64,000 nucleotides of DNA from Escherichia coli (GTDB taxonomy: Bacteria > Pseudomonadota > Gammaproteobacteria > Enterobacterales > Enterobacteriaceae), in assembly GCF_036507355.1 (NCBI RefSeq), contig NZ_AP027877.1. One strand, 5' to 3'. Of the stretch, positions 21,441-33,212 are shown piece by piece. Made by a program: the position numbers and the translations under genes. Every line of letters begins with the position of its first letter. Position 1 is the first letter of the stretch. Below the pieces are notes generated by a model. That model saw only the letters and a program-made list of their open reading frames with translations. It ran no database searches and was not told where the DNA came from.

Positions 21441-22286
21441 TTATTTTCCCGCCTCCGGGTGCGTATCAAACGCCGCCATCACCAGCGCTAACTCATCCAC
21501 GGTAAAGCCATGTTTCGCATCATCCACGCCCAGACCAAACTGTTCTTGCATCACGGCATATAACGACGCCACATCCGGTAGATTTCGCTGCTCCACCGCG
21601 TGCCCATTTTCATAATGGGTAAAATGAAAATTGGGCAGTGTCAGCTTGCCGCCGTCCGGTAAATGGCGGCACATCAGCAAATGATGGCGAAAATGCGACT
21701 GCGGCCAGTGCGCCGACCAGAAATTGCCCATCACATAATCGCTTTGTTGCTGCTCGCAGAGATCAAAACGGTACATCGACTGCCAGTGCTGATGATGATT
21801 AAACTGCAACACCCAATCATCACCCTCCTGCAACAACCGATACTCTCCGTGTGGCGTGGTCTGCACGAGATCGGGAACTAAACGAATCGGCGCGGTTAGC
21901 GTCTGCCCACCGAAACCGACATCAGCAATCCATTTTTCCTCTTCCAGTTCCACCAACAGCAAACGATGGGTGCGCGGCGGTAATGCTGGCGGATTTGATA
22001 ACACTACGCGCCCTAACAAGCTGCGAACGTTAAACCCCAGCTCGCGTAACACCCGCTCAAACACGCCATTCTGCTCAAAACAGTAACCGCCACGACGGGC
22101 TATCACCAGTTTCTCTTCCAGCGATTGATCATCAAGCTGTATTTCCCTCGGCAGCAAAACGTCAAGGTTTTCAAACGGAATGGTGCAATTGTGTTTCAGG
22201 TGCAATGCACGAAGCGTATCAATATTGACCGCAGCAGCTCCCGACCAGTTAATACGGGCAAAATAGTGATTCAGAATGGGCGTCAT
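21441..22286 (-). CDS. nhoA: Arylamine N-acetyltransferase / N-hydroxyarylamine O-acetyltransferase
   Basis: 281-aa ORF; NAT family with catalytic Cys context GGYCFEQN. Confidence 0.9.
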   Translation of the reverse strand: MTPILNHYFARINWSGAAAVNIDTLRALHLKHNCTIPFENLDVLLPREIQLDDQSLEEKLVIARRGGYCFEQNGVFERVLRELGFNVRSLLGRVVLSNPPALPPRTHRLLLVELEEEKWIADVGFGGQTLTAPIRLVPDLVQTTPHGEYRLLQEGDDWVLQFNHHQHWQSMYRFDLCEQQQSDYVMGNFWSAHWPQSHFRHHLLMCRHLPDGGKLTLPNFHFTHYENGHAVEQRNLPDVASLYAVMQEQFGLGVDDAKHGFTVDELALVMAAFDTHPEAGK

Positions 22287-22458
22287 CAGGCGTTTCCCTT
22301 AGTGGTTTTCTCAACTTATAACCTGGAATAGACGCCGCACCGGCTATTTTGTGCGATCGCGGACATGCATCACGTTCGCAAATCGCCAATCCCGTTAATT
22401 TCGTTACTTATTGCGTTACGGACTACGCTTAAAAAAACCTTCTTCGCGAGGCGATACC

Positions 22459-23028
22459 ATGAGCCGATTCATCCCCATAGAATTACACCATGCCAGCCGT
22501 CTGTTAAATCATGGCCCAACTGTCTTGATCACCAGTTTCGATGAGCAATCCCAGCGGCGTAACATTATGGCTGCAGCCTGGTCAATGCCGGTGGAGTTTG
22601 AACCTCCACGCGTGGCGATTGTGGTAGATAAATCGACATGGACCAGGGAGTTGATTGAACATAACGGTAAATTTGGCATCGTTATCCCGGGCGTTGCAGC
22701 AACTAACTGGACGTGGGCGGTGGGAAGTGTGTCGGGGCGTGATGAAGATAAATTTAATTGCTATGGCATTCCGGTTGTGAGAGGCCCGGTATTTGGTTTG
22801 CCTCTGGTCGAGGAAAAATGTCTGGCGTGGATGGAGTGTCGATTGCTACCTGCGACTTCTGCGCAAGAAGAATACGACACGCTGTTTGGCGAAGTAGTAT
22901 CAGCAGCGGCAGACGCACGGGTATTTGTCGAAGGCCGCTGGCAGTTTGATGATGATAAGCTCAATACATTGCATCATTTAGGTGCTGGCACGTTTGTTAC
23001 TAGCGGCAAGCGTGTTACGGCGGGTTAA
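22459..23028 (+). CDS. yddH: Flavin reductase-like domain protein
   Basis: 189-aa ORF from MSRFIPIELH; synteny. Confidence 0.8.
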   Translation: MSRFIPIELHHASRLLNHGPTVLITSFDEQSQRRNIMAAAWSMPVEFEPPRVAIVVDKSTWTRELIEHNGKFGIVIPGVAATNWTWAVGSVSGRDEDKFNCYGIPVVRGPVFGLPLVEEKCLAWMECRLLPATSAQEEYDTLFGEVVSAAADARVFVEGRWQFDDDKLNTLHHLGAGTFVTSGKRVTAG

Positions 23029-23031
23029 GCA

Positions 23032-23259
23032 TTACATGCTGTAACCAGGTTTCTTTATCAAAGCCTCCATTTGGGGCGCGATTTCGGCATCCCAGATAGC
23101 TTGCCATGATTCTGGTTGAATCTGCTGTAGAGAAATGCTTATCGAGCTATCTTTACTGTTCAGATGGCGAATAATAACGTCGGTAATATCTGCAGCAAGT
23201 GCTGCTTTTTGTTGTTCGTCCAGTTCACGCGGAAAACATTTAATGTCGATGTGCGGCAT
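23032..23259 (-). CDS. pptA: Tautomerase (4-oxalocrotonate tautomerase family)
   Basis: 75-aa ORF beginning MPHIDIKCF with the catalytic N-terminal Pro typical of this family. Confidence 0.85.
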
Positions 23260-23626
23260 GATTGTGCTCCTTTTGAAAGATGTCAGTAAAATTAACACAC
23301 ATTGTGAATGTCGTGTGTCCGGTAATGCGTTTTTACGACAATAATGCCTGCTTGAAATTGTAGATATTTGCACTACACCCTTTTAAATAAAGCACCAACA
23401 AATCTTCAAATTGCAGGACATATTCTTCTGCCAATATACCATTAAGAAAACATCAAGTTCCCGGCTTGCCAATTTATTAACGCCCATTATAGACGCTGAA
23501 ACAAGCCACGGACAAAGAAGATGCCAAAATTACCGGCAATGCAGAAAAACTCAACGAACTGTTAGGTTAAATGGATAATTTTGAATTTTGGTTCAATATA
23601 GTGACACTATAAAATTACTTTGTATC

Positions 23627-23649
23627 GGGCAGGTGCCCTGCCCTTTTTT
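23627..23649 (+). terminator. Orphan rho-independent terminator (perfect 7-bp GC stem + T6)
   Basis: GGGCAGG-tgc-CCTGCCC followed by TTTTTT; overlaps a second CCCTTTTT/AAAAAGGG inverted repeat; no annotated + strand gene ends here. Confidence 0.5.
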
Positions 23650-23712
23650 AGTTAAAAAGGGCTGAAAGAAGAAATACGCATCATTCATGGAAAACTCGCC
23701 GCGATATGGTAA

Positions 23713-24015
23713 TTCGCGGCATGGCAATTAACTTGCCAGTCAGAGGATATTGTTGTCCGTTATGGTAGCGAAGATTTTGCCATCAAACTTTTTAATGCAA
23801 CATTGCCGGAAGCAGAGACGGTAGCAGCCAGAGTGAAACAAGAACTTAAACTGGCAGCTATCCCGCATCAGGCATCTGCTGTTAGTGCGTTCGTTACGGT
23901 TAGTCACGGGATTACCTGGTCTGCTCCCGCCAAAACGGCTGAACAAATTATTTCAGATGCCGACGCCGCGTTATACCGGGCGAAAGCAAGTGGGCGAAAT
24001 CGATGGGCTTTATAA
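23713..24015 (+). pseudogene. C-terminal fragment of a GGDEF-domain (diguanylate cyclase-like) protein
   Basis: In-frame translation ...RYGSEDFAIKL...SAFVTVSHGITW...ADAALYRAKASGRNRWAL matches the C-terminal half of GGDEF domains; no N-terminal part and a stop immediately upstream. Confidence 0.5.
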
Positions 24016-24078
24016 CTATTAGGGGACTGGCTAGATTACGTATCTTCGCTCTTAACAAGGACTGACGGCAGGGCAAGA

Positions 24079-24560
24079 TTACGAAAGCCCGCTCCCCGCA
24101 AGGACTGACGCCAGATAGTTTCTGTCCATGGCTGCTTTTCGCATCTTATGTCTTAACCCTGCCTTGAATACCTTATCATTCGTCAAAATATTAATAGCAA
24201 TGTGCCGTATCCCTGGAAATAATTCTGCTGCATTTCCTCTTCTTATTTTGCAGTCGTCTTCATTCATTACCACGTCCAGACGCCAGTGCAGCTTATTCTC
24301 CACGTGCCAGTGGTTTCGGATTGCTGTGGCGAACTTCTCTGCGGTTAAATCAGCAGAACTGATATAATATCTGACCGTCATTTCTGGCTCTTTCTTTTGT
24401 TCTGCTATTATGGACCGAAAGGAGACTGCCACGCATAATTTCTTCAGCCCTTTCCATTCAAACGTGAAATCAATAAGTTCATCAGGAACATCGCAAACAA
24501 TATGAAGACGGATTTCTTCTCTGCCGTGACTAAAATGCGAATTATTTAGTACAAAAAAAG
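24079..24560 (-). pseudogene. 3' remnant of an H-repeat / ISAs1-family transposase gene
   Basis: ORF 24079-24432 encodes ...[43 protein letters not shown]..., the conserved C-terminus of H-repeat proteins such as YdcC; further matching residues continue upstream in a shifted frame; N-terminal two-thirds absent. Confidence 0.6.
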
Positions 24561-24636
24561 CGGCGCACCTTGTTCTTTCCCAGATTCCTAATATGGCAAC
24601 TTTAAGTTATCGCCGTCTATACTTATAGAAATTTCA

Positions 24637-25092
24637 TCAGGGGTGACATAAATAGAATTTTTTTTCATCCTCAATTGCCCATAACTGATTAATAAAAAAG
24701 TGTTTTTTATCATCTAATAACAAATCATCACATGTAGTAAAATTATTAATATCAAAAAAATCATCAGCACAATTAATTTTTAAATTTAAAAAATAAAGAA
24801 AAATATTATTGATTGATTTGAGTGTAAACCACTTGTCATTAACAAATTTATAGCCAGATGATTTTATAAAATAATAATTATCTCCTGGTATAAAGGCATA
24901 CATATCATTTAAGGTTATACTCAACAAAAAACTACGACCTGGTTTAATAGTATTCCAGCGTTCAGGATTCGTATTAATTTCAAAAGGACATGAACCACCT
25001 AAGTAGTCCAACGTGATATTCCCAGAGTTGATCCTGGATGGTTTTTTGCATATCGCATCATATTCATCTCCTTTTCCATCTTTTACTTTCAT
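24637..25092 (-). CDS. Hypothetical protein (151 aa), AT-rich, translationally coupled to the upstream small ORF
   Basis: Start ATG overlaps the stop of the upstream ORF (ATGA at 25089-25092); no recognisable motif. Confidence 0.4.
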   Translation of the reverse strand: MKVKDGKGDEYDAICKKPSRINSGNITLDYLGGSCPFEINTNPERWNTIKPGRSFLLSITLNDMYAFIPGDNYYFIKSSGYKFVNDKWFTLKSINNIFLYFLNLKINCADDFFDINNFTTCDDLLLDDKKHFFINQLWAIEDEKKFYLCHP

Positions 25093-25379
25093 AGGTAGAT
25101 AATATTTAGAAAAAAATACGTGGTAGAGCTATTGTTAGTAAAGGTTATGTTAGCAAAAATCCTGTTATTTTTTTTACTCATAGCTAATTGAGCATTGACA
25201 TCCGCTATATAATTTATATGATTACATTTTTTCTTACACTCATCATAATTTTCGATAGGATAAATTAATGGCCTTCCTTTGATATCTCTCTCAAGCCCAA
25301 ACCCGTATTTTTTTATTAAAACCATTTCATCCGCAGTCGATTGAAAGGAATAGAAAAATATAATATTTACGATTGTCAT
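25089..25379 (-). CDS. Hypothetical small protein (96 aa), AT-rich
   Basis: ORF only; hydrophobic N-terminus; coupled to the downstream ORF. Confidence 0.35.
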   Translation of the reverse strand: MTIVNIIFFYSFQSTADEMVLIKKYGFGLERDIKGRPLIYPIENYDECKKKCNHINYIADVNAQLAMSKKNNRIFANITFTNNSSTTYFFLNIIYL

Positions 25380-25431
25380 TATTATGATTTTTTTATAGCT
25401 TGCAGCATTAATATATTTCTCGACTTATTAG

Positions 25432-26280
25432 TTAATGGAGAAGTGTTTTTTCTAATTCCGCTATTTTTTTCTTAACTGAATTGCTTAATATTTCATCATT
25501 AATCGAGTCTATCTCACTTTCAATTAATCTTATTTCAAAATATCTTTCTATGTTATATGCATTCTCAAATATTTGATCTTTTTGTTTAGAGATCAGTTTA
25601 GTTGCAATACGGATATGTTCGTCATATGAAACTTCATCCTCTTTGCACGTTGAATATTTATCAGTAGTTGTATAATCCTGTGACCACATACCACCTTTTT
25701 TATTATCCCCATAATACCACTGAATATGAGACATTTCATGACATAAAGTAGCAACATGAGAATCCTTTCCCGTTACTGGATTTTTTTTGCCATCTCTATA
25801 CTCAAATTTTGCGCCTATGTTAATTATATAGGGCATATCCTTACTTGGGCTGACGAATGCTGCAAATTCATTACAACCTGTATAATTTATAAAACTGCTC
25901 ATTGTTAAATCATTAGCTATAATCATTAATCTTCTCACGCCATCCATCATAAGAAATCTAGCATTCATGCGCCTACCTGTATTATGTCCATATTTTCTTA
26001 TATTAACTTCCTTATTTCCTTTAACACCAAAGATCTTACTGAAATAATATTCCTCCTGTGCTCCCCATCTCAAAAGATCATCTGCTCTTTTTATCAAAAC
26101 CAACTTTTGTGCCTTACGAGCCTTATCAATCATTATTTTAAAATGATCAGTTATTTTTTGCTCTTTCACACATTCTTCTGGCTCTGGCTTTGGTTGTCCA
26201 GAAGTTTGATTATTATCGTCCATAGTGTCCTTCCATTGAGAGAAAATCATCATTCGCAAATAGCAACTAAAAAGCAGCAT
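25432..26280 (-). CDS. Hypothetical protein with HExxH motif (putative zincin-like metallopeptidase or toxin domain)
   Basis: Motif ATLCHEMSHIQWYYG; ~30% GC; true start may be the internal MDDNNQ (26223); function inferred from motif only. Confidence 0.45.
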   Translation of the reverse strand: MLLFSCYLRMMIFSQWKDTMDDNNQTSGQPKPEPEECVKEQKITDHFKIMIDKARKAQKLVLIKRADDLLRWGAQEEYYFSKIFGVKGNKEVNIRKYGHNTGRRMNARFLMMDGVRRLMIIANDLTMSSFINYTGCNEFAAFVSPSKDMPYIINIGAKFEYRDGKKNPVTGKDSHVATLCHEMSHIQWYYGDNKKGGMWSQDYTTTDKYSTCKEDEVSYDEHIRIATKLISKQKDQIFENAYNIERYFEIRLIESEIDSINDEILSNSVKKKIAELEKTLLH

Positions 26281-26410
26281 TACTTGACCTTTCCCTGCAT
26301 AACAATATTTATAAAATAATACGTTTTATGATCTCACCTTGGGCTCCCAACAAGATAATTTCAGTTTTAAAGACTTTCACGAAAAAAATATAGAAATACC
26401 TCACCACCCT

Positions 26411-26701
26411 TCACTTACCAATTAATCTCACAGGAAATCCAACTTCCTTACCACAAATACAATCCCAAGTAACACCTCCCAAAATTTTTGATACTTTAGG
26501 CTGCAATGGCATTATTGACATTATAAATTTATCAAGTTCTTCGCTATATTTAATTCCCTTTATATTTCTTATTATTGATATTCTAGCAGTAAAGATAGCC
26601 GTCTCTCCATCTACACTAAAAGTGTAATTACAATTTTTTGTAATCTCATCAAATTCAACCGATAACAAATCAATATTATGGTTTGTAAACACTATGCCCA
26701 T
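26411..26701 (-). CDS. Putative immunity protein for the upstream effector
   Basis: 96-aa ORF whose start overlaps the effector 3' end by 26 nt; call rests on position and size only. Confidence 0.4.
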   Translation of the reverse strand: MGIVFTNHNIDLLSVEFDEITKNCNYTFSVDGETAIFTARISIIRNIKGIKYSEELDKFIMSIMPLQPKVSKILGGVTWDCICGKEVGFPVRLIGK

Positions 26702-28115
26702 TCCATACCTCCTTAAATTCCTGTTCAGTCATCAGATATCGACTCCCTTGATATGGATCATATATTATCACATTCCCAGCATCATCAACACCCTTAACAA
26801 GTACCCAATGCCCTACTTTACTTCCAGAATCCCACATCATTGCTCCCCATGAACCAGTATTACTGAGGGCATATAAACTAGATTCGCTCACTGCATTCCC
26901 TTCCCAGCCGACATCAAATTTATTAAGCTTGTTTGCCAGCGACGTCATAGATGTTAATTCTGTTCCAATTACATTTTGCGTGACAAAAATATACCTATCC
27001 CTAAGCAACATTTCCCCACAGGCCGCTCCACAGCCTGTTAAAGTCAATTGCTTTATTACATTTGAATCTAAAACCTCATCAAATACTGTCCAATTGCCAC
27101 CAGCACCACCTTCTAAAACTACCGGCTCTACAAATACTTTCCCAGAGATATTTTCTTCTGGTATTTTTGCGGGTATCATAAAGCCCCATAAAAAGCTGGC
27201 AAAATGCTCCAGAGCAATCTGATCACCATTATTTGCATCCATTATCATTTTTTTAAGTGCATCCCATGCTTGCCCATTTATCAATGAATCACTAATATTA
27301 AATAAAGCCTGTTCTTTTTCGTTTAAATTTATATTTGCCTGTTCACATAACCCATCTTCGCCTATCGGGCAAGCAACCGTTGCCGTTGCCGTATCTAACA
27401 GAGCATCGAATGTAACTAAGGCTAAATCCGCCACACCATGTAAAGTGGTGATTGCTCCATTCCCCATTTGAGTAAGTGTGTTCTCTACAAACCATTCTCT
27501 AATTTGAGATTTATCTCCTTCAATATCATTCCTGAGAGATTCTCTGATATTCTTTATTGAAAAAAACTCCCCCCATGATTGGTCAGGATCTTTTATTTGG
27601 AATAAATCATTTTTAACCTCAGGTGAAATATCTCCGTCAAAAATATTACCAACAGAGAGGAGATCCTTCAGAAGCAGTAAATCGTGTATTACTTCAGCAG
27701 TCCTTTCATAATTAAAAGTTCTATCAATGACAGAAATCATTGGTGATTTTATTTTGGTATATAATTTACCAAGGCAGTTATGGTTATTAATCCCAACAAC
27801 TGAACCATGATAAGCGACAGGTCTCCCCTCTATTGTTACAGTCGGACTTCCCGTTAAAATAACGCAGTCACCTGTTCCTTGAGATGTACCAGATATGACA
27901 CCTTTACCGGCATTACTTTGAGTTCCAGCAATCACTGAACCAACATTTAAAGCTCTGCATCCACGCGCCCATACCGTTGAACTGTACTGCCTTTCACTAT
28001 CTAAAGTCTGGTAACTGTCAAAAGGAACCTTGTCACCTCCTACTTCACATACATCTGGTGAAGAGCACACGACTTTAAATCTACATTCACCATCCCCGAT
28101 ATGATAGCTACCCAT
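26676..28115 (-). CDS. Putative T6SS effector: N-terminal DUF4150-type PAAR-like domain, C-terminal C39-like papain-fold Cys peptidase domain
   Basis: N-term SPDVC...VPFDSY...GKGVISGTSQG...TVTIEGRPVAYHGSVVGINNHN resembles the DUF4150 pattern; C-term GCGAACGEML and GHWVLVKGVDD...IIYDP resemble Cys and His motifs of C39/papain-like peptidases; downstream of vgrG. Confidence 0.6.
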   Translation of the reverse strand: MGSYHIGDGECRFKVVCSSPDVCEVGGDKVPFDSYQTLDSERQYSSTVWARGCRALNVGSVIAGTQSNAGKGVISGTSQGTGDCVILTGSPTVTIEGRPVAYHGSVVGINNHNCLGKLYTKIKSPMISVIDRTFNYERTAEVIHDLLLLKDLLSVGNIFDGDISPEVKNDLFQIKDPDQSWGEFFSIKNIRESLRNDIEGDKSQIREWFVENTLTQMGNGAITTLHGVADLALVTFDALLDTATATVACPIGEDGLCEQANINLNEKEQALFNISDSLINGQAWDALKKMIMDANNGDQIALEHFASFLWGFMIPAKIPEENISGKVFVEPVVLEGGAGGNWTVFDEVLDSNVIKQLTLTGCGAACGEMLLRDRYIFVTQNVIGTELTSMTSLANKLNKFDVGWEGNAVSESSLYALSNTGSWGAMMWDSGSKVGHWVLVKGVDDAGNVIIYDPYQGSRYLMTEQEFKEVWNGHSVYKP

Positions 28116-28698
28116 AATATTTTTTTCCTATACATTCAGGAATAATACAACTCAGCACTCCTTCTTTCATTCCAAAAAAATCAGGTATTGTCAATCTCCA
28201 GGTAAGGTATATTTCCTGTCGATTTAAATCGATAACCATTGTATCCGCAACAGGTAAGAACATATGAGATGTATTATGCTTGGTTTTTAATATAAGTACA
28301 GGTCGTATACCTGGCAATTTTGTCTTAACAACCTGTTCAAATTTAAAAAAACCTTCAAGAGTGATGTTTTCATCGCCAGAGAGAAACCCCGCGTATATCA
28401 TATCCGGATGAGCACTATTGTAGAACCTCTCATCAAAATCATCCGGCAAATAGGGATAGCGCTTTTCACGCCATACTTCATTGTAGGTTCCTGCATACTG
28501 GAGGCGACTTTTCCACCATCGAGATACAGGGCCAACGCCTTGAAAAAAGTCAGATTCCCCATTAAAAATGGTAGCGTTTTCTGACAAAGCAGAGCTGGTT
28601 ATTTGTGGGAGTTTATATTGACAACTTGTATTAAGTTGGGAAATATCAGGATAATATCCACAACCTACAGGGTTTGCTGAAAAAACCAATTTTCCCAT
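28108..28698 (-). CDS. Hypothetical protein in adaptor/chaperone position between vgrG and the effector
   Basis: 196-aa ORF; stop overlaps effector start by 8 nt; adaptor role (DUF2169-type by analogy) inferred from gene order only. Confidence 0.35.
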   Translation of the reverse strand: MGKLVFSANPVGCGYYPDISQLNTSCQYKLPQITSSALSENATIFNGESDFFQGVGPVSRWWKSRLQYAGTYNEVWREKRYPYLPDDFDERFYNSAHPDMIYAGFLSGDENITLEGFFKFEQVVKTKLPGIRPVLILKTKHNTSHMFLPVADTMVIDLNRQEIYLTWRLTIPDFFGMKEGVLSCIIPECIGKKYYG

Positions 28699-29560
28699 AC
28701 CATCTGGTTGCCAAATACCACCGTAAGCAAGCTCATAGCGTAGAGGAATATTAATAATTTTATCGTGAGATGCTGATCGTTCGCTACCACAATCTTCTGA
28801 TCATGACTGCCTTCCTTCTTACTCCCAACATTCACCGTCTGACCCACACCCACCGTAATTTTCTGGTTATTGGTTATGGTTTCCGTGTGGTCGTGTTTCA
28901 CCGTCGTCGTCCGGTCATTCAGCACCTCCGTATCCATGTTCTTCTGCGCATGGATATACACCTGCTCATTACTGGTGGCGTCTTCAAACCGCAGCTCGTT
29001 AAATCCGCTTCCTTTATAGGTTTTTGACCGGATGGTCATCTGCGTCTTCGTTCCCGGCAGGTCGCCCGGCGAACGGTTGTCCTCATGGTAGGTCCGCCCC
29101 ATGATTATCGGCTGGTCCGGGTCGCCGTTCAGAAAATCAACAATCACCTCCTGGCCCACCCGCGGTATCGCCAGGTTACCGAACCCCGGCCCCGCCCACG
29201 CCTGCGATACCCGCACCCAGCATGAACTCGCCTCCGTCATCCCGTGATAACGGTCCCAGTGGAACTTCACCCGTACCCGGCCATGTTCATCGCAGAAGAT
29301 TTCCTCTCCCGCAGGCCCGGTGACAATGGCACTCTGCGGCCCGTCCACCTTCGGTTTGCTTTGCAGCCGTGGACGCCACGTCCGGTCCGCCGGTATCACC
29401 TCTAACTGATTTCCCAGCGTGGTTCCTCTCCCTTGGCTGCCGTGCAGCGCCTGCGGCTGGTTTCCTGACAGAATGCTCTGTACCACCTGCCATTCACGGT
29501 TCAGCATCTTCTGCGGATGAGGTGTACTGGCAATAGCGGACACTACCATTTGTTCTTTTT

Positions 29561-30379
29561 TTAAGCAGCCATCTGATGATATTTTTCCCTGAAGGCTGCC
29601 GGGGAGATATTCCCCAGACGAGAGTGACGACGCTGACGATTGTAGAAAATCTCAATGTATTCCCGTATTACTGAGATGGCTTCATCCCGGTTATTAAAAC
29701 GATAGTGGCTCAGGCTCTCATTTTTCAGCGTTCCCCAGAAGCTTTCCATCGGAGCGTTGTCGTAACAGTTACCTTTACGCGACATTGATGTTTTCAGACC
29801 AAACTGCTCCTGTATGACCCGGTAATCGTATGCGCAGTACTGTGAACCTCGATCAGAGTGGTGGATTAGCCCGGCAGGTGGGCGCTGTCTCCTGAGCGCC
29901 ATAAACAGGGCTTTACCTGTCAGCTCTTTTGTCATGCGCTCTCCCATGGCGTAGCCGACAATTTCGCACGTATAAACATCTTTGATGCCAGCGAGGTACA
30001 ACCATCCCTCCTGTGTGGCAACATACGTCAGGTCCGCCACCCAGACCTGATTTGGTGCTGTAGGAGCGAACGTCTGGTTCAGCAGATTTGGCGCAACTGG
30101 CAGATTGTGGTTCGAGTTCGTAGTCGCTCTGAACTTGCGTTTCTGCTTACAGCGTAGCCTTAGCTCCTTACGAAGACGTGCCAGTCGGTCACGACCAACG
30201 ATGATGCCATTCTCTGCCAGCTCCGTCTGGAGCCGCCGGGTTCCATATGTTTCGCGAGTGCGGATATGTGCCACCTTAATCTCCAGTTTTAGCCGCTCAT
30301 CACTTTGTTTTCTGTCTGAGGGTTCATGCTGTACCCAGTTGTAATAACCGCTCCTGGATACACCAAATACCTGACACAT
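29561..30379 (-). CDS. IS600-like transposase OrfB (DDE integrase core)
   Basis: 272-aa ORF with IS3-family OrfB sequence; normally expressed as an OrfAB fusion by -1 frameshifting. Confidence 0.8.
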   Translation of the reverse strand: MCQVFGVSRSGYYNWVQHEPSDRKQSDERLKLEIKVAHIRTRETYGTRRLQTELAENGIIVGRDRLARLRKELRLRCKQKRKFRATTNSNHNLPVAPNLLNQTFAPTAPNQVWVADLTYVATQEGWLYLAGIKDVYTCEIVGYAMGERMTKELTGKALFMALRRQRPPAGLIHHSDRGSQYCAYDYRVIQEQFGLKTSMSRKGNCYDNAPMESFWGTLKNESLSHYRFNNRDEAISVIREYIEIFYNRQRRHSRLGNISPAAFREKYHQMAA

Positions 30380-30414
30380 CGCTTCAATGGGAAATTGTTG
30401 TCGCCATTGTTCGA

Positions 30415-30717
30415 TTAACGCGTATTTTTCAGCGACTCCTGTGCAAAATACGCTGTTGCTTTTTTTAATATATCTCGCTCAAGGCGAGCTTCATTTAACG
30501 CCTTACGCAGTTGCAGAATTTCAGATTCCAGTTCAGCCACCGTGCGGGAACCAGGAGTACCGAGCCCTTTTCTGGCGGCGGTAACCCATTGTCCTAAAGT
30601 GCCTTCAGGAAGAGATAATCGGGAAGCGCCTTCACTGATCGAAAGTTGATTTTCAAGAACCGTTCTGACAGCTTCGGCTTTGAACTCTTTAGAGTAACGT
30701 TGGGTTTTTCTGCTCAT
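30415..30717 (-). CDS. IS600-like transposase OrfA (HTH)
   Basis: 100-aa ORF MSRKTQRYSKEFKAEAVR... typical of IS3-family OrfA. Confidence 0.8.
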   Translation of the reverse strand: MSRKTQRYSKEFKAEAVRTVLENQLSISEGASRLSLPEGTLGQWVTAARKGLGTPGSRTVAELESEILQLRKALNEARLERDILKKATAYFAQESLKNTR

Positions 30718-31725
30718 TATTAGCTCCTTCTGATGCCATTCTATTTCAGGAAGGAGTGTCCGTTAAACTCAGGCTACCTCAGGATGCCCCGTCAGCGTAA
30801 ACCGCGTTCCCGGCCACAGCCTCGGCGAATTACTCTGCCCTGTGGCCTTTTCCGCATCACTGCGCAGGCTCTCCATCTGGTACAGCGTGAAATCCTTGCC
30901 GTGCTGCTCATCCTTGAACCTTCCCGGATAATCAAATATTTCATACTGCGCCAGCTGTCCGTTCAGGTTCTCACCCTGCTGCTCATACATCCCCGGCCAG
31001 TCCGGCACCTTAAACGTGTAATCCTGGCTCTGCACCGACGACGGGCGGACATGCGCCTCATAACGGAACATACTGAGACACTCCGTCTCCGCTCCTGCCG
31101 ATGTGTCCGGGTTAAACGGAAGCTCTCCCGCCTGTGACAGCCCCGCCACATCGTCGCACAGCGTCAGCTTCTGCTCCGGACTGTCCGCCGCAAACCGCTC
31201 AAAGAAGAAAATTCCCTCCTCCGCCCACAGCCGGGACAGAAACGCCAGGTCGCTTTCCCCGTACTGGACACAGAACTCCCGCGCCGGATGGTCCTCATAA
31301 AACAGCGGCGTCCACTCCGTGACGCCGTTCTCGTTCAGTAACGTGGCCGATATCGTCCGGATATCCTGCTGCTGGAAGATACGGAAGTTCTGCCGCAGCC
31401 CGCACCGCCATAACGGCGGCTCAATACGCAGGTGATAACGCATCTGCCAGCCGTTATTCTCCTGCATACCAAAACCCGCCACCACGCCGGTGACATAACG
31501 CTGCGCCACTGCGCCCTGCCAGATGGTCAGCGTCGCCTTCTTCTCCAGCAGCATCTCCGCCGTCTGCATAAAAGAGTCGCTGGCAACATCCACACTCATC
31601 ACAAACGGATATGACTGGCTCTGGATTAACCGGAAGCTCACCACTGCAAAGGTGTCCGGCTCCTGGCCGTCAACCTCCAGCGTAAAGCGAAGACCTTTTA
31701 ATGACATAAATACCTCTCAGACATA

Positions 31726-32010
31726 TCAGCCTATATTTACCGTGCCGCCACCGATAACCACGCCGCCGCAGTCAACAGCATCACCGCTTCTGGCGGCGGG
31801 CAGACCGTCAATAAAGACGGTTGAAGAACCTCTGGCGATTTTTCGGGGATGAGGGGGATGCTTCGGTTTAGCATGCGGCGTCAGCGGATCTCCCTGACGG
31901 GCTGCGGGAAGACCATCGATAAAGACGGTGGATGACCCGGCGGTGATGACGGTCTCGTAATAACCGTCGTGCTGGGTGCCTTTGTCGGTGAGTTTGGCTG
32001 CTAAAGGCAT
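31726..32010 (-). CDS. PAAR-repeat protein (T6SS spike tip)
   Basis: 94-aa ORF containing GLPAARQGD and GLPAARSGD; immediately upstream of vgrG on the same strand. Confidence 0.8.
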   Translation of the reverse strand: MPLAAKLTDKGTQHDGYYETVITAGSSTVFIDGLPAARQGDPLTPHAKPKHPPHPRKIARGSSTVFIDGLPAARSGDAVDCGGVVIGGGTVNIG

Positions 32011-32340
32011 AATTCCTCCTGTTCAGAATTTCTACAGCAGCAGGTTTCAAAAATCCGGAGAAATATTCAACGAAATATTAATCACTTCACCGGATATTCT
32101 GATACGTACCTTCACTGGTCTATTTAAGTAATACAAATTGTTGGCGTGTATTAAGTTCCATTTTGTTCTCCTTAATTATGTAAGGAGTATTTGATCATGT
32201 ATAAGCAATAAAAACAGCTTCAGGAAATAAGGAATATCGCAATTTTTAAACATAAAATGCGAATCGTTCAATACAAAAAAGCAGCGTTGCGTAATCTTTC
32301 CCTGATTAAATACGCTACCGCCCTACTCTGATGACATGAT

Positions 32341-32397
32341 CTGCACTGCACTGCACTGCACTGCACTGCACTGCACTGCACTGCACTGCACTGCACT
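32341..32397. repeat. Pentanucleotide tandem repeat (CTGCA) x 11.4
   Basis: Perfect direct repeat read from the sequence; intergenic, ~330 bp upstream of the PAAR start. Confidence 0.95.
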
Positions 32398-32594
32398 ATC
32401 ATATCGACATGTTTCTCTACATGCGAAGAGATGTTTTATTTTCGGATTATATTAAATTGATATTTCATATAAAAAACGAAATTACATCAATCATATAAAT
32501 AATTGTATCAACTTTAATTACTATTCATAGCAAACAAATGGATATCCAGTTAACTACGCCAGTGATTCATTAACATTAACCTCCGGCATTATTG

Positions 32595-33212
32595 TTAAAT
32601 AATGACATTCCTTTTTAATACTTCTTGTAATTTCGGTAACTGACATACAGCATCAGCAATCGCACTGATATTCGTGGCATTATCCTGAAACCATTCATGC
32701 CCAGGCCCCCATGTGCGCATAGTGCAAAGATAACAGTCCACCAGCGTTAGTTGCTCACCAAACGCATAAGGTTCAGCGGTCAATTGTGAATTCAGCCAGA
32801 TATAAAGCGATTTACGATATTCAATAACATTCTTCTTTAACTGTTCGGGTGCGTCAGGAGCCCAACGCTCAGGGTAATCGGCGAAAGTGAATGTTGGATA
32901 GACATTAGCAACCAGCCAGACCAATAGCCGTTGAAACTGCTGACGTTCGGCGCGCCCAACCGGTGGCGCAAGGTCCGGGCGACGATCGAGAACCATCAAT
33001 GCAATCGCCGCTGTCTCCGTCATAATCTCGTCATTTTCCAGCGCCAGTGTCGGAATCTGACACAACGGGTTCAGGGTTTTCAATAACTCGCGTGAAGTTC
33101 CCTCGTGGTCAAAACCACTGACATCAACGAACTGATAAGGAATATCAGCCAGTGTTAGCATCAGCTCACTGATTGTAGAGCCCCATCCGGGTACGCCATA
33201 CACCTTAATCAT
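32595..33212 (-). CDS. yncG: Glutathione S-transferase-like protein
   Basis: 205-aa ORF; synteny next to ansP. Confidence 0.8.
   Translation of the reverse strand: MIKVYGVPGWGSTISELMLTLADIPYQFVDVSGFDHEGTSRELLKTLNPLCQIPTLALENDEIMTETAAIALMVLDRRPDLAPPVGRAERQQFQRLLVWLVANVYPTFTFADYPERWAPDAPEQLKKNVIEYRKSLYIWLNSQLTAEPYAFGEQLTLVDCYLCTMRTWGPGHEWFQDNATNISAIADAVCQLPKLQEVLKRNVII

Follow-up and report, generated by a model that had tools for sequence, protein, structure and literature searches.

Pseudogene relics of a sulfatase, a MASE5-GGDEF diguanylate cyclase and an H-repeat at the edge of a type VI secretion island in Escherichia coli

Very probably, the interval that runs from pptA into the edge of the type VI secretion island in the DNA analysed here (64,000 nt of Escherichia coli contig NZ_AP027877.1, referred to as the window) consists of non-functional relics only, the remains of a sulfatase gene, a cyclase gene and an H-repeat that have decayed at the island edge. 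The correct labels for these features are three pseudogene relics (sulfatase, MASE5-GGDEF cyclase and ISAs1/H-repeat), and not genes. This is ordinary gene decay, already annotated in public genomes as pseudogenes, and there is no sign of new function. A sequence-only reading of the same DNA had listed two relics, a GGDEF fragment and a transposase fragment; this inventory was incomplete, as the 3' end of a sulfatase gene lies just upstream of the cyclase relic. In net terms, the cell would have lost a c-di-GMP-synthesising enzyme and a sulfatase, and no function is expected of what is left.

Genomic context and reference loci

The flanking gene order in the window is narZ-narH-narW-narI (the nitrate reductase Z operon), yddE, nhoA (21441-22286, minus strand), yddH (22411-23028), pptA (23032-23260, minus strand), the relics, the type VI secretion island, yncG (32595-33212, minus strand) and ansP. 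The highest identity of the nar-yddE block to any complete E. coli genome was 98.9%. All genome counts refer to a megablast set of 5426 complete E. coli genomes. PM06121 (locus L002) was used as the reference for the intact locus, and positions in other genomes are given under the codes L001 (OkiPb01695), L004 (PapRG-04-4) and L009 (MRY15-131).

The megablast search showed that some strains have the intact order pptA, alkyl/aryl-sulfatase (658 aa), GGDEF protein (349 aa) and ydcC. When the window was compared to PM06121 using blastn, the homology was found in separated colinear blocks with precise junctions between them, and window positions 22000-23492 correspond to L002 4580-6074.

The sulfatase and cyclase relics

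The sulfatase relic comprises the last 39 codons and the stop codon of the alkyl/aryl-sulfatase gene (23493-23612, plus strand), as determined by blastn, from its translation compared to the intact C-terminus, and from the Pfam domains of the intact 658-aa protein. It matches the intact locus (L002 8001-8249) at 89% identity by blastn, and a Tyr codon has been replaced by an in-frame TAA stop at 23568-23570. Relative to PM06121, 1928 bp are missing at a junction with AG microhomology (23491-23492), and this deletion took the start and most of the gene; the same junction was found in 161 of the 5426 complete genomes. Downstream of the relic, a consensus scan detected a terminator-like hairpin on the plus strand (GGGCAGG-TGC-CCTGCCC, 23627-23643) that is followed by a T run and extends with it to 23652. 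The hairpin is presumably the former terminator of the sulfatase gene, a function that we infer.

The cyclase relic begins with the native ATG and the first 11 codons of the gene (MVIRGMAINLP; 23706-23738, plus strand), which were identified by alignment to L002 8217-8249. At this point 740 bp are missing at a GCCA microhomology (23735-23738), and the relic continues with the last 92 codons and the stop codon (23737-24015, plus strand), which encode the second half of the GGDEF domain and of which the last 8 nt (24008-24015) are derived from the island. The deletion is out of frame, and therefore the frame of the native ATG ends after 20 codons. The frame at 23713-24012 (plus strand) matched the Pfam GGDEF profile PF00990 with an E value of 7.4e-19, far beyond chance, at profile positions 70-161 of 161 only, and contains the motif RYGSEDF at 23758-23778. 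The GGDEF-domain C-terminal fragment with this motif that had been read from the letters alone is therefore real. It is not a bare C-terminal fragment, however, as its own ATG and 11 codons remain and are joined, in a different frame, to the 92 C-terminal codons.

Nor is the degenerate motif an original trait of a degenerate GGDEF protein, as the wording of that reading allowed. The intact alleles read RYGGEEF, both in E. coli and in a divergent Escherichia (SCPM-O-B-8794), and the degeneracy is therefore secondary. The relic and the intact allele are identical at 83 of 92 residues (90%), and the retained part carries nine replacement and six silent codon changes, giving a pN/pS of 0.48 that is based on 15 substitutions only. 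Two of the replacement changes, both in the catalytic motif, account for the change from GGEEF to GSEDF, and the catalytic GG(D/E)EF motif is not present in the relic. The complete GGDEF fold (~160 residues) is also absent, whereas the intact homologue matches positions 1-161 of PF00990, and the remaining domain has no uninterrupted frame from a start codon, the native ATG being in another frame. From its sequence, and from its colinearity with the gene for the 349-aa MASE5-GGDEF protein found at this site in other genomes, the relic is evidently descended from a GGDEF gene. The sequence does not fix the order of these events, and the cyclase may already have been inactivated by the G-to-S replacement in its motif when the deletion occurred.

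The same cyclase relic was found in only one of the 5426 complete genomes, that of OkiPb01695, which is colinear with the window over 22000-24531 at 97.9% identity. In its NCBI annotation the relic is given as an incomplete diguanylate cyclase pseudogene.

It was considered whether the GGDEF piece may be a functional small gene encoding a stand-alone degenerate GGDEF protein, for instance a c-di-GMP receptor or interaction partner, which is translated from an internal start such as the TTG at 23803. Degenerate GGDEF proteins with non-catalytic roles do exist in E. coli, such as CdgI/YeaI (PMC4287979), which favours this explanation, and a 70-aa ORF is present at 23803-24015. This ORF begins after the motif, however, and half of the GGDEF fold is missing. 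In addition, the ATG and 11 codons of the colinear full-length gene remain upstream and out of frame, substitutions have occurred at replacement and silent sites alike, and this version has been kept in a single complete genome; a functional small gene is therefore extremely unlikely. Under the preferred reading of a decayed gene, the native promoter region and ATG of the cyclase nevertheless survive, and a 20-codon peptide or a non-coding transcript could be made from them. A search of Rfam for structured RNAs in and around the relics gave nothing credible, with one match at an E value of 0.46 and 16.5 bits against a gathering score of 124.

The H-repeat remnant

The H-repeat remnant is 515 bp in length (24069-24583, minus strand); both termini are kept and 776 internal bp have been lost, with the junction at 24531. 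The larger part (24069-24531) corresponds to nt 1-463 of an H-repeat of the ISAs1 family (ISEc1/YdcC type) and contains the right terminal inverted repeat CAGGGCAAGATTACG, which is exact by pattern match, and transposase codons 226-378. It shares 96.5-98.3% DNA identity with the H-repeats of PM06121, OkiPb01695 and K-12 (blastn). The smaller part (24531-24583, minus strand) is the left, transposase-upstream terminus of the element, about nt 1240-1291, and 27-28 nt of it are identical to L002 10712-10738 and L001 10008-10035. Its terminal repeat is present and degenerate, reading CTGGGAAAGAACAAG compared to CAGGGAAAGATTACG, with a match at ~10 of 15 positions. Because this far non-coding terminus remains, the element has been internally deleted and not truncated from outside; the 776 bp that were lost held the region upstream of the transposase gene and the first codons of that gene, up to about codon 228. 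The view that the cyclase and transposase fragments both lack their N-termini has to be amended accordingly, as each deletion is internal and leaves the 5' end of its unit in place.

The frame at 24082-24540 (minus strand) matched the NCBIfam ISAs1 transposase NF033564 (E=1.8e-36, positions 204-314 of 314), again far beyond chance, and by tblastn it is 96% identical to YdcC over residues 226-378 of 378. The remnant that had been described as the 3' third of an ISAs1/H-repeat transposase gene is thus borne out, but its size is not, as it represents about 40% of the protein. The fragment covers positions 139-200 of 200 of DDE_Tnp_1 only, whereas full-length YdcC covers positions 3-200 and also has the N-terminal DDE_Tnp_1_assoc domain. 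Residues 1-225 are absent, so the remnant lacks the complete DDE transposase that the ISAs1 family requires, and its assignment to the ISAs1-family H-repeat/ISEc1 is one of sequence homology. Frame-corrected alignment did not restore an intact start and full domain to either gene, as the ATG of the cyclase is intact but 740 bp are gone, and the H-repeat is without 776 bp.

The K-12 H-repeat that encodes YdcC (b1460) occupies the same site beside pptA with the same orientation, its right terminal repeat is identical, and the 463 bp retained in the window are 98.3% identical to it. The K-12 element is complete, however, at 1291 bp with an intact 378-aa transposase, while the 515 bp in the window are without nt 464-1239. 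Furthermore, the K-12 element abuts DNA 88 bp from pptA, and the counterpart of window 23349-24068, which holds the cyclase and sulfatase relics, is wholly gone. In OkiPb01695, a group II intron with a frameshifted ltrA (L001 10122-11445) was observed inserted in the left end of an intact H-repeat.

The 776-bp deletion junction was present in 219 of the 5426 complete genomes and is annotated in O145:H28 as an incomplete ISAs1 transposase. The pseudogenes labelled 'ISAs1 family transposase, missing N-terminus' in O145:H28 (e.g. RM9872 I3Y_RS09760) and in PapRG-04-4 have the identical junction, and that of O145:H28 shows 100% identity to the window over 141 nt, with the adjoining island genes also being the same. 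The O145 and PapRG-04-4 genomes have however lost more on the pptA side, and neither retains the cyclase relic.

The occurrence of an identical derivative in 219 genomes, with both termini retained and the right terminal repeat intact, is what may be expected if the deleted H-repeat were a non-autonomous (MITE-like) derivative that is moved by the transposase of a full-length H-repeat. This is very unlikely, as the left terminal repeat is degenerate, only one copy per genome was seen among the 25 genomes listed, with no increase in copy number, and the derivative is at the same locus in both genomes that were checked (O145 RM9872 and PapRG-04-4). MITE-like proliferation was rejected based on the single copy per listed genome and the shared locus of the two checked, and the remnant is regarded here as a decayed element.

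There is also practically no chance that faulty assembly or sequencing of the window produced the apparent deletions. Repeats such as the H-repeat can collapse in short-read assemblies, and nothing more specific favours this explanation, but each junction recurs in independently assembled complete genomes (OkiPb01695, PapRG-04-4, O145:H28 and the 161 with the sulfatase junction).

Identity and distribution of the intact cyclase

The intact 349-aa protein has a MASE5 domain (residues 9-190) followed by a GGDEF domain (residues 191-346) with the motif RYGGEEF, and is represented by WP_021555416.1 in PM06121 and by WP_000236740.1 in MS 69-1. DgcX, which has a ~270-aa eight-helix N-terminal domain and adjoins prophages at attB (PMC4287979), was considered as the identity of the cyclase and rejected, as the intact homologue is a MASE5-GGDEF protein of 349 aa encoded beside pptA. 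In the literature that was searched, nothing on E. coli was found for dgcY or MASE5, and no name or earlier account of the cyclase emerged.

The gene is carried by 443 of the 5426 complete E. coli genomes (about 8%), and in 440 of these it is at least 99% identical to the query. The intact genes share with the relic their chromosomal position and orientation, their first 11 and last 92 codons and their sulfatase neighbour, downstream of pptA. The window copy differs in that it is frameshifted and lacks 740 bp, and with them the MASE5 sensor and positions 1-69 of the GGDEF profile, and in its motif, GSEDF in place of GGEEF. Its DNA is ~92-95% identical to that of the intact copies, whereas the intact copies are at least 99% identical to each other. 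This is an accessory diguanylate cyclase which, in genomes other than those that carry it, appears to have been lost stepwise beside an insertion-sequence end, and it is relevant to differences between strains in c-di-GMP signalling capacity. Only one of the Escherichia species representatives has a close homologue, and therefore it is not established that the cyclase is ancestral to the genus; the closest homologues outside Escherichia are 48-50% identical (Hafnia paralvei and Mangrovibacter).

The presence of the gene in only 443 genomes, and the absence of a close homologue from most of the Escherichia species representatives, would also fit a history in which the short state came first, other strains acquired the sulfatase-cyclase pair by insertion, and the 'fragments' amount only to similarity at the borders of that insertion. 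No insertion would leave a recipient with pieces from inside a gene, however, and the window has three colinear coding pieces (sulfatase 3', cyclase 5' and cyclase 3') with junctions inside reading frames, as well as a frameshift and a premature stop. The complete pair is also found at the same site and without the island in a lineage with flanks that are ~88% identical to the window, which makes an ancestral short state extremely improbable compared to the decay of a once complete pair.

The island boundary and other H-repeat ends

In the island-free genome of MRY15-131, the order pptA-sulfatase-dgc is followed directly by yncG, and SCPM-O-B-8794, which is labelled E. coli and has flanks only ~88% identical to the window, has the same island-free order. 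The cyclase C-terminus is RWEK-stop in island-free genomes compared to RWAL-stop in island-bearing alleles, including the relic, and from this contrast the island corresponds to window 24008-32594. Its edges are thus at 24007/24008, which falls within the final three codons of the cyclase relic, and at 32594/32595, giving a length of 8.6 kb. The suggestion that relics made by deletion mark the edge of the accessory island is supported by the comparison to MRY15-131 and SCPM-O-B-8794, which places the boundary at 24007/24008, and the locus supplies exact edges for the variable VgrG/Rhs island between pptA and yncG. In MRY15-131 (L009 8042-8051) and in locus L010 (7042-7051), the convergent stop codons of the cyclase and yncG are directly adjacent (TAA/TTA), and therefore the island went in where there was no intergenic DNA at all, taking the place of the last two codons of the cyclase.

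The island encodes PAAR, VgrG, DUF2169, a PAAR-like/C39 effector and an M35-like protein, and also contains H-repeat sequences. Its end on the cyclase side (24008-24071) is also present in the dgc-positive, island-bearing loci L002 and L008, and includes at about 24026-24071 a degenerate copy of the H-repeat right end, which is a direct repeat of the adjoining live end at 74% identity. A solo H-repeat left end (nt 1137-1291; 32151-32304, minus strand) was identified by blastn at 93.8%, with an intact terminal repeat by exact pattern match. It is located upstream of PAAR-vgrG near the yncG side, and is conserved in other E. coli at the site. A weaker copy of the left end, with 78% identity and three mismatches in the terminal repeat, was observed at 26266-26302 beside the M35-like gene.

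H-repeat ends flank the island in inverted orientation (right at ~24026, left at 32304). The island as a unit bounded exactly by these ends was rejected, as the empty-site boundaries are 19 nt and 290 nt further out, and no target-site duplications were evident around the H-repeat and the island in the flanks inspected. The idea that H-repeat ends brought in the sulfatase-cyclase module came from a sequence immediately past the left sulfatase breakpoint in PM06121 that weakly resembles the terminal repeat; this was unsupported, as the terminal-repeat pattern (up to 3 mismatches) gave 5 matches compared to 3.1 expected in shuffles.

Deletions at the right end of the H-repeat

In seven genomes, five different left flanks were found joined to the same terminal base of the H-repeat, at the end with the sequence CAGGGCAAG. 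In the PM06121 type (1 of 5426 genomes) the H-repeat end is located ~150 bp beyond the degenerate end, and in the type shared by the window and OkiPb01695 (1 of 5426) it is directly at the degenerate end. In the EC28 type (10 of 5426) it is inside the cyclase, after about codon 315, and in the PapRG-04-4 type it is inside the sulfatase relic, at window 23559 (29 of 5426, including one spurious two-piece match to OkiPb01695). In the K-12/O145 type it is 88 bp from pptA, at window 23348. Read as a series, these junctions suggest that deletions anchored at the end of the insertion sequence progressively erased the sulfatase-cyclase pair.

The invariant end and variable flanks would be the outcome of transposase-mediated adjacent deletion, or of insertion followed by recombination between copies, and the invariance of the H-repeat end is the sole basis on which we infer that the transposase was involved. 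The transposase-less derivative occurs with three of the right-end junctions, those of the O145/K-12, PapRG and window types, so either recombination between strains has shuffled the parts or the junctions predate the internal deletion. The H-repeat is generally seen as being carried along passively with Rhs/VgrG loci in E. coli. We put forward, tentatively and with some doubt, that it may have been an active deletion engine at this site, that deletions anchored at its right end may have removed the resident sulfatase-cyclase pair, and that the window and the one matching genome of 5426 might represent a rare intermediate of the loss undergone by most E. coli.

Proposed history of the locus

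The older arrangement would have been pptA, alkyl/aryl-sulfatase and MASE5-GGDEF diguanylate cyclase followed by yncG, as in the island-free genomes, with the 8.6-kb type VI secretion island then inserting at the 3' end of the cyclase gene. Later in this lineage, the 1928-bp deletion at the AG microhomology removed the promoter-proximal region and codons 1 to about 619 of the sulfatase, and through the 740-bp deletion at the GCCA microhomology the cyclase lost all of its MASE5 sensor along with the first half of GGDEF. The relics would then have drifted, giving the change from GGEEF to GSEDF and the stop codon in the sulfatase relic. The adjoining H-repeat lost 776 internal bp, namely the promoter and the first ~228 codons of the transposase gene, and kept both ends. 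The small deletions probably arose through slippage or illegitimate recombination. The right-end junctions that vary between strains may be due to adjacent deletions mediated by the transposase, or to insertion and recombination, with a stepwise loss of the pair in most E. coli.

Other features of the island

An IS3-family element (29520-30781) is located in the vgrG gene of the island, with orfA at 30415-30717 and orfB at 29561-30379 on the minus strand, and splits vgrG into 30769-31707 and 28665-29549; it is absent at this position in PapRG-04-4, O145 RM9872 and PM06121. At about 28758-28764, ~796 bp are missing relative to PapRG-04-4 (L004 8365-9160), which takes the C-terminal end of VgrG together with the N-terminal portion of the accessory DUF2169 protein, and the leftover DUF2169 ORF (28108-28698) matches profile positions 137-294 only. 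From this loss, the secretion island itself has decayed in the source strain.

A perfect repeat of the pentanucleotide CTGCA with 11.4 copies (32341-32397) lies ~330 nt upstream of the start of the PAAR gene, in the interval that separates yncG from the solo H-repeat end. Runs of at least three copies were present in none of the 10 loci compared, and about two copies were seen in six inspected flanks, and the expansion may therefore be strain-specific.

The product of the gene at 26676-28115 (minus strand) is 479 aa long and has a PAAR-like toxin domain at its N-terminus and a C39-type peptidase domain at its C-terminus; the gene is overlapped by a 96-aa ORF with no family match (26411-26701, minus strand). 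From their arrangement and domain content, these look like an effector-immunity pair of the island. Downstream of the 96-aa ORF are two AT-rich ORFs without matches and the gene for the M35-like protein, which has an HExxH motif (25432-26280).
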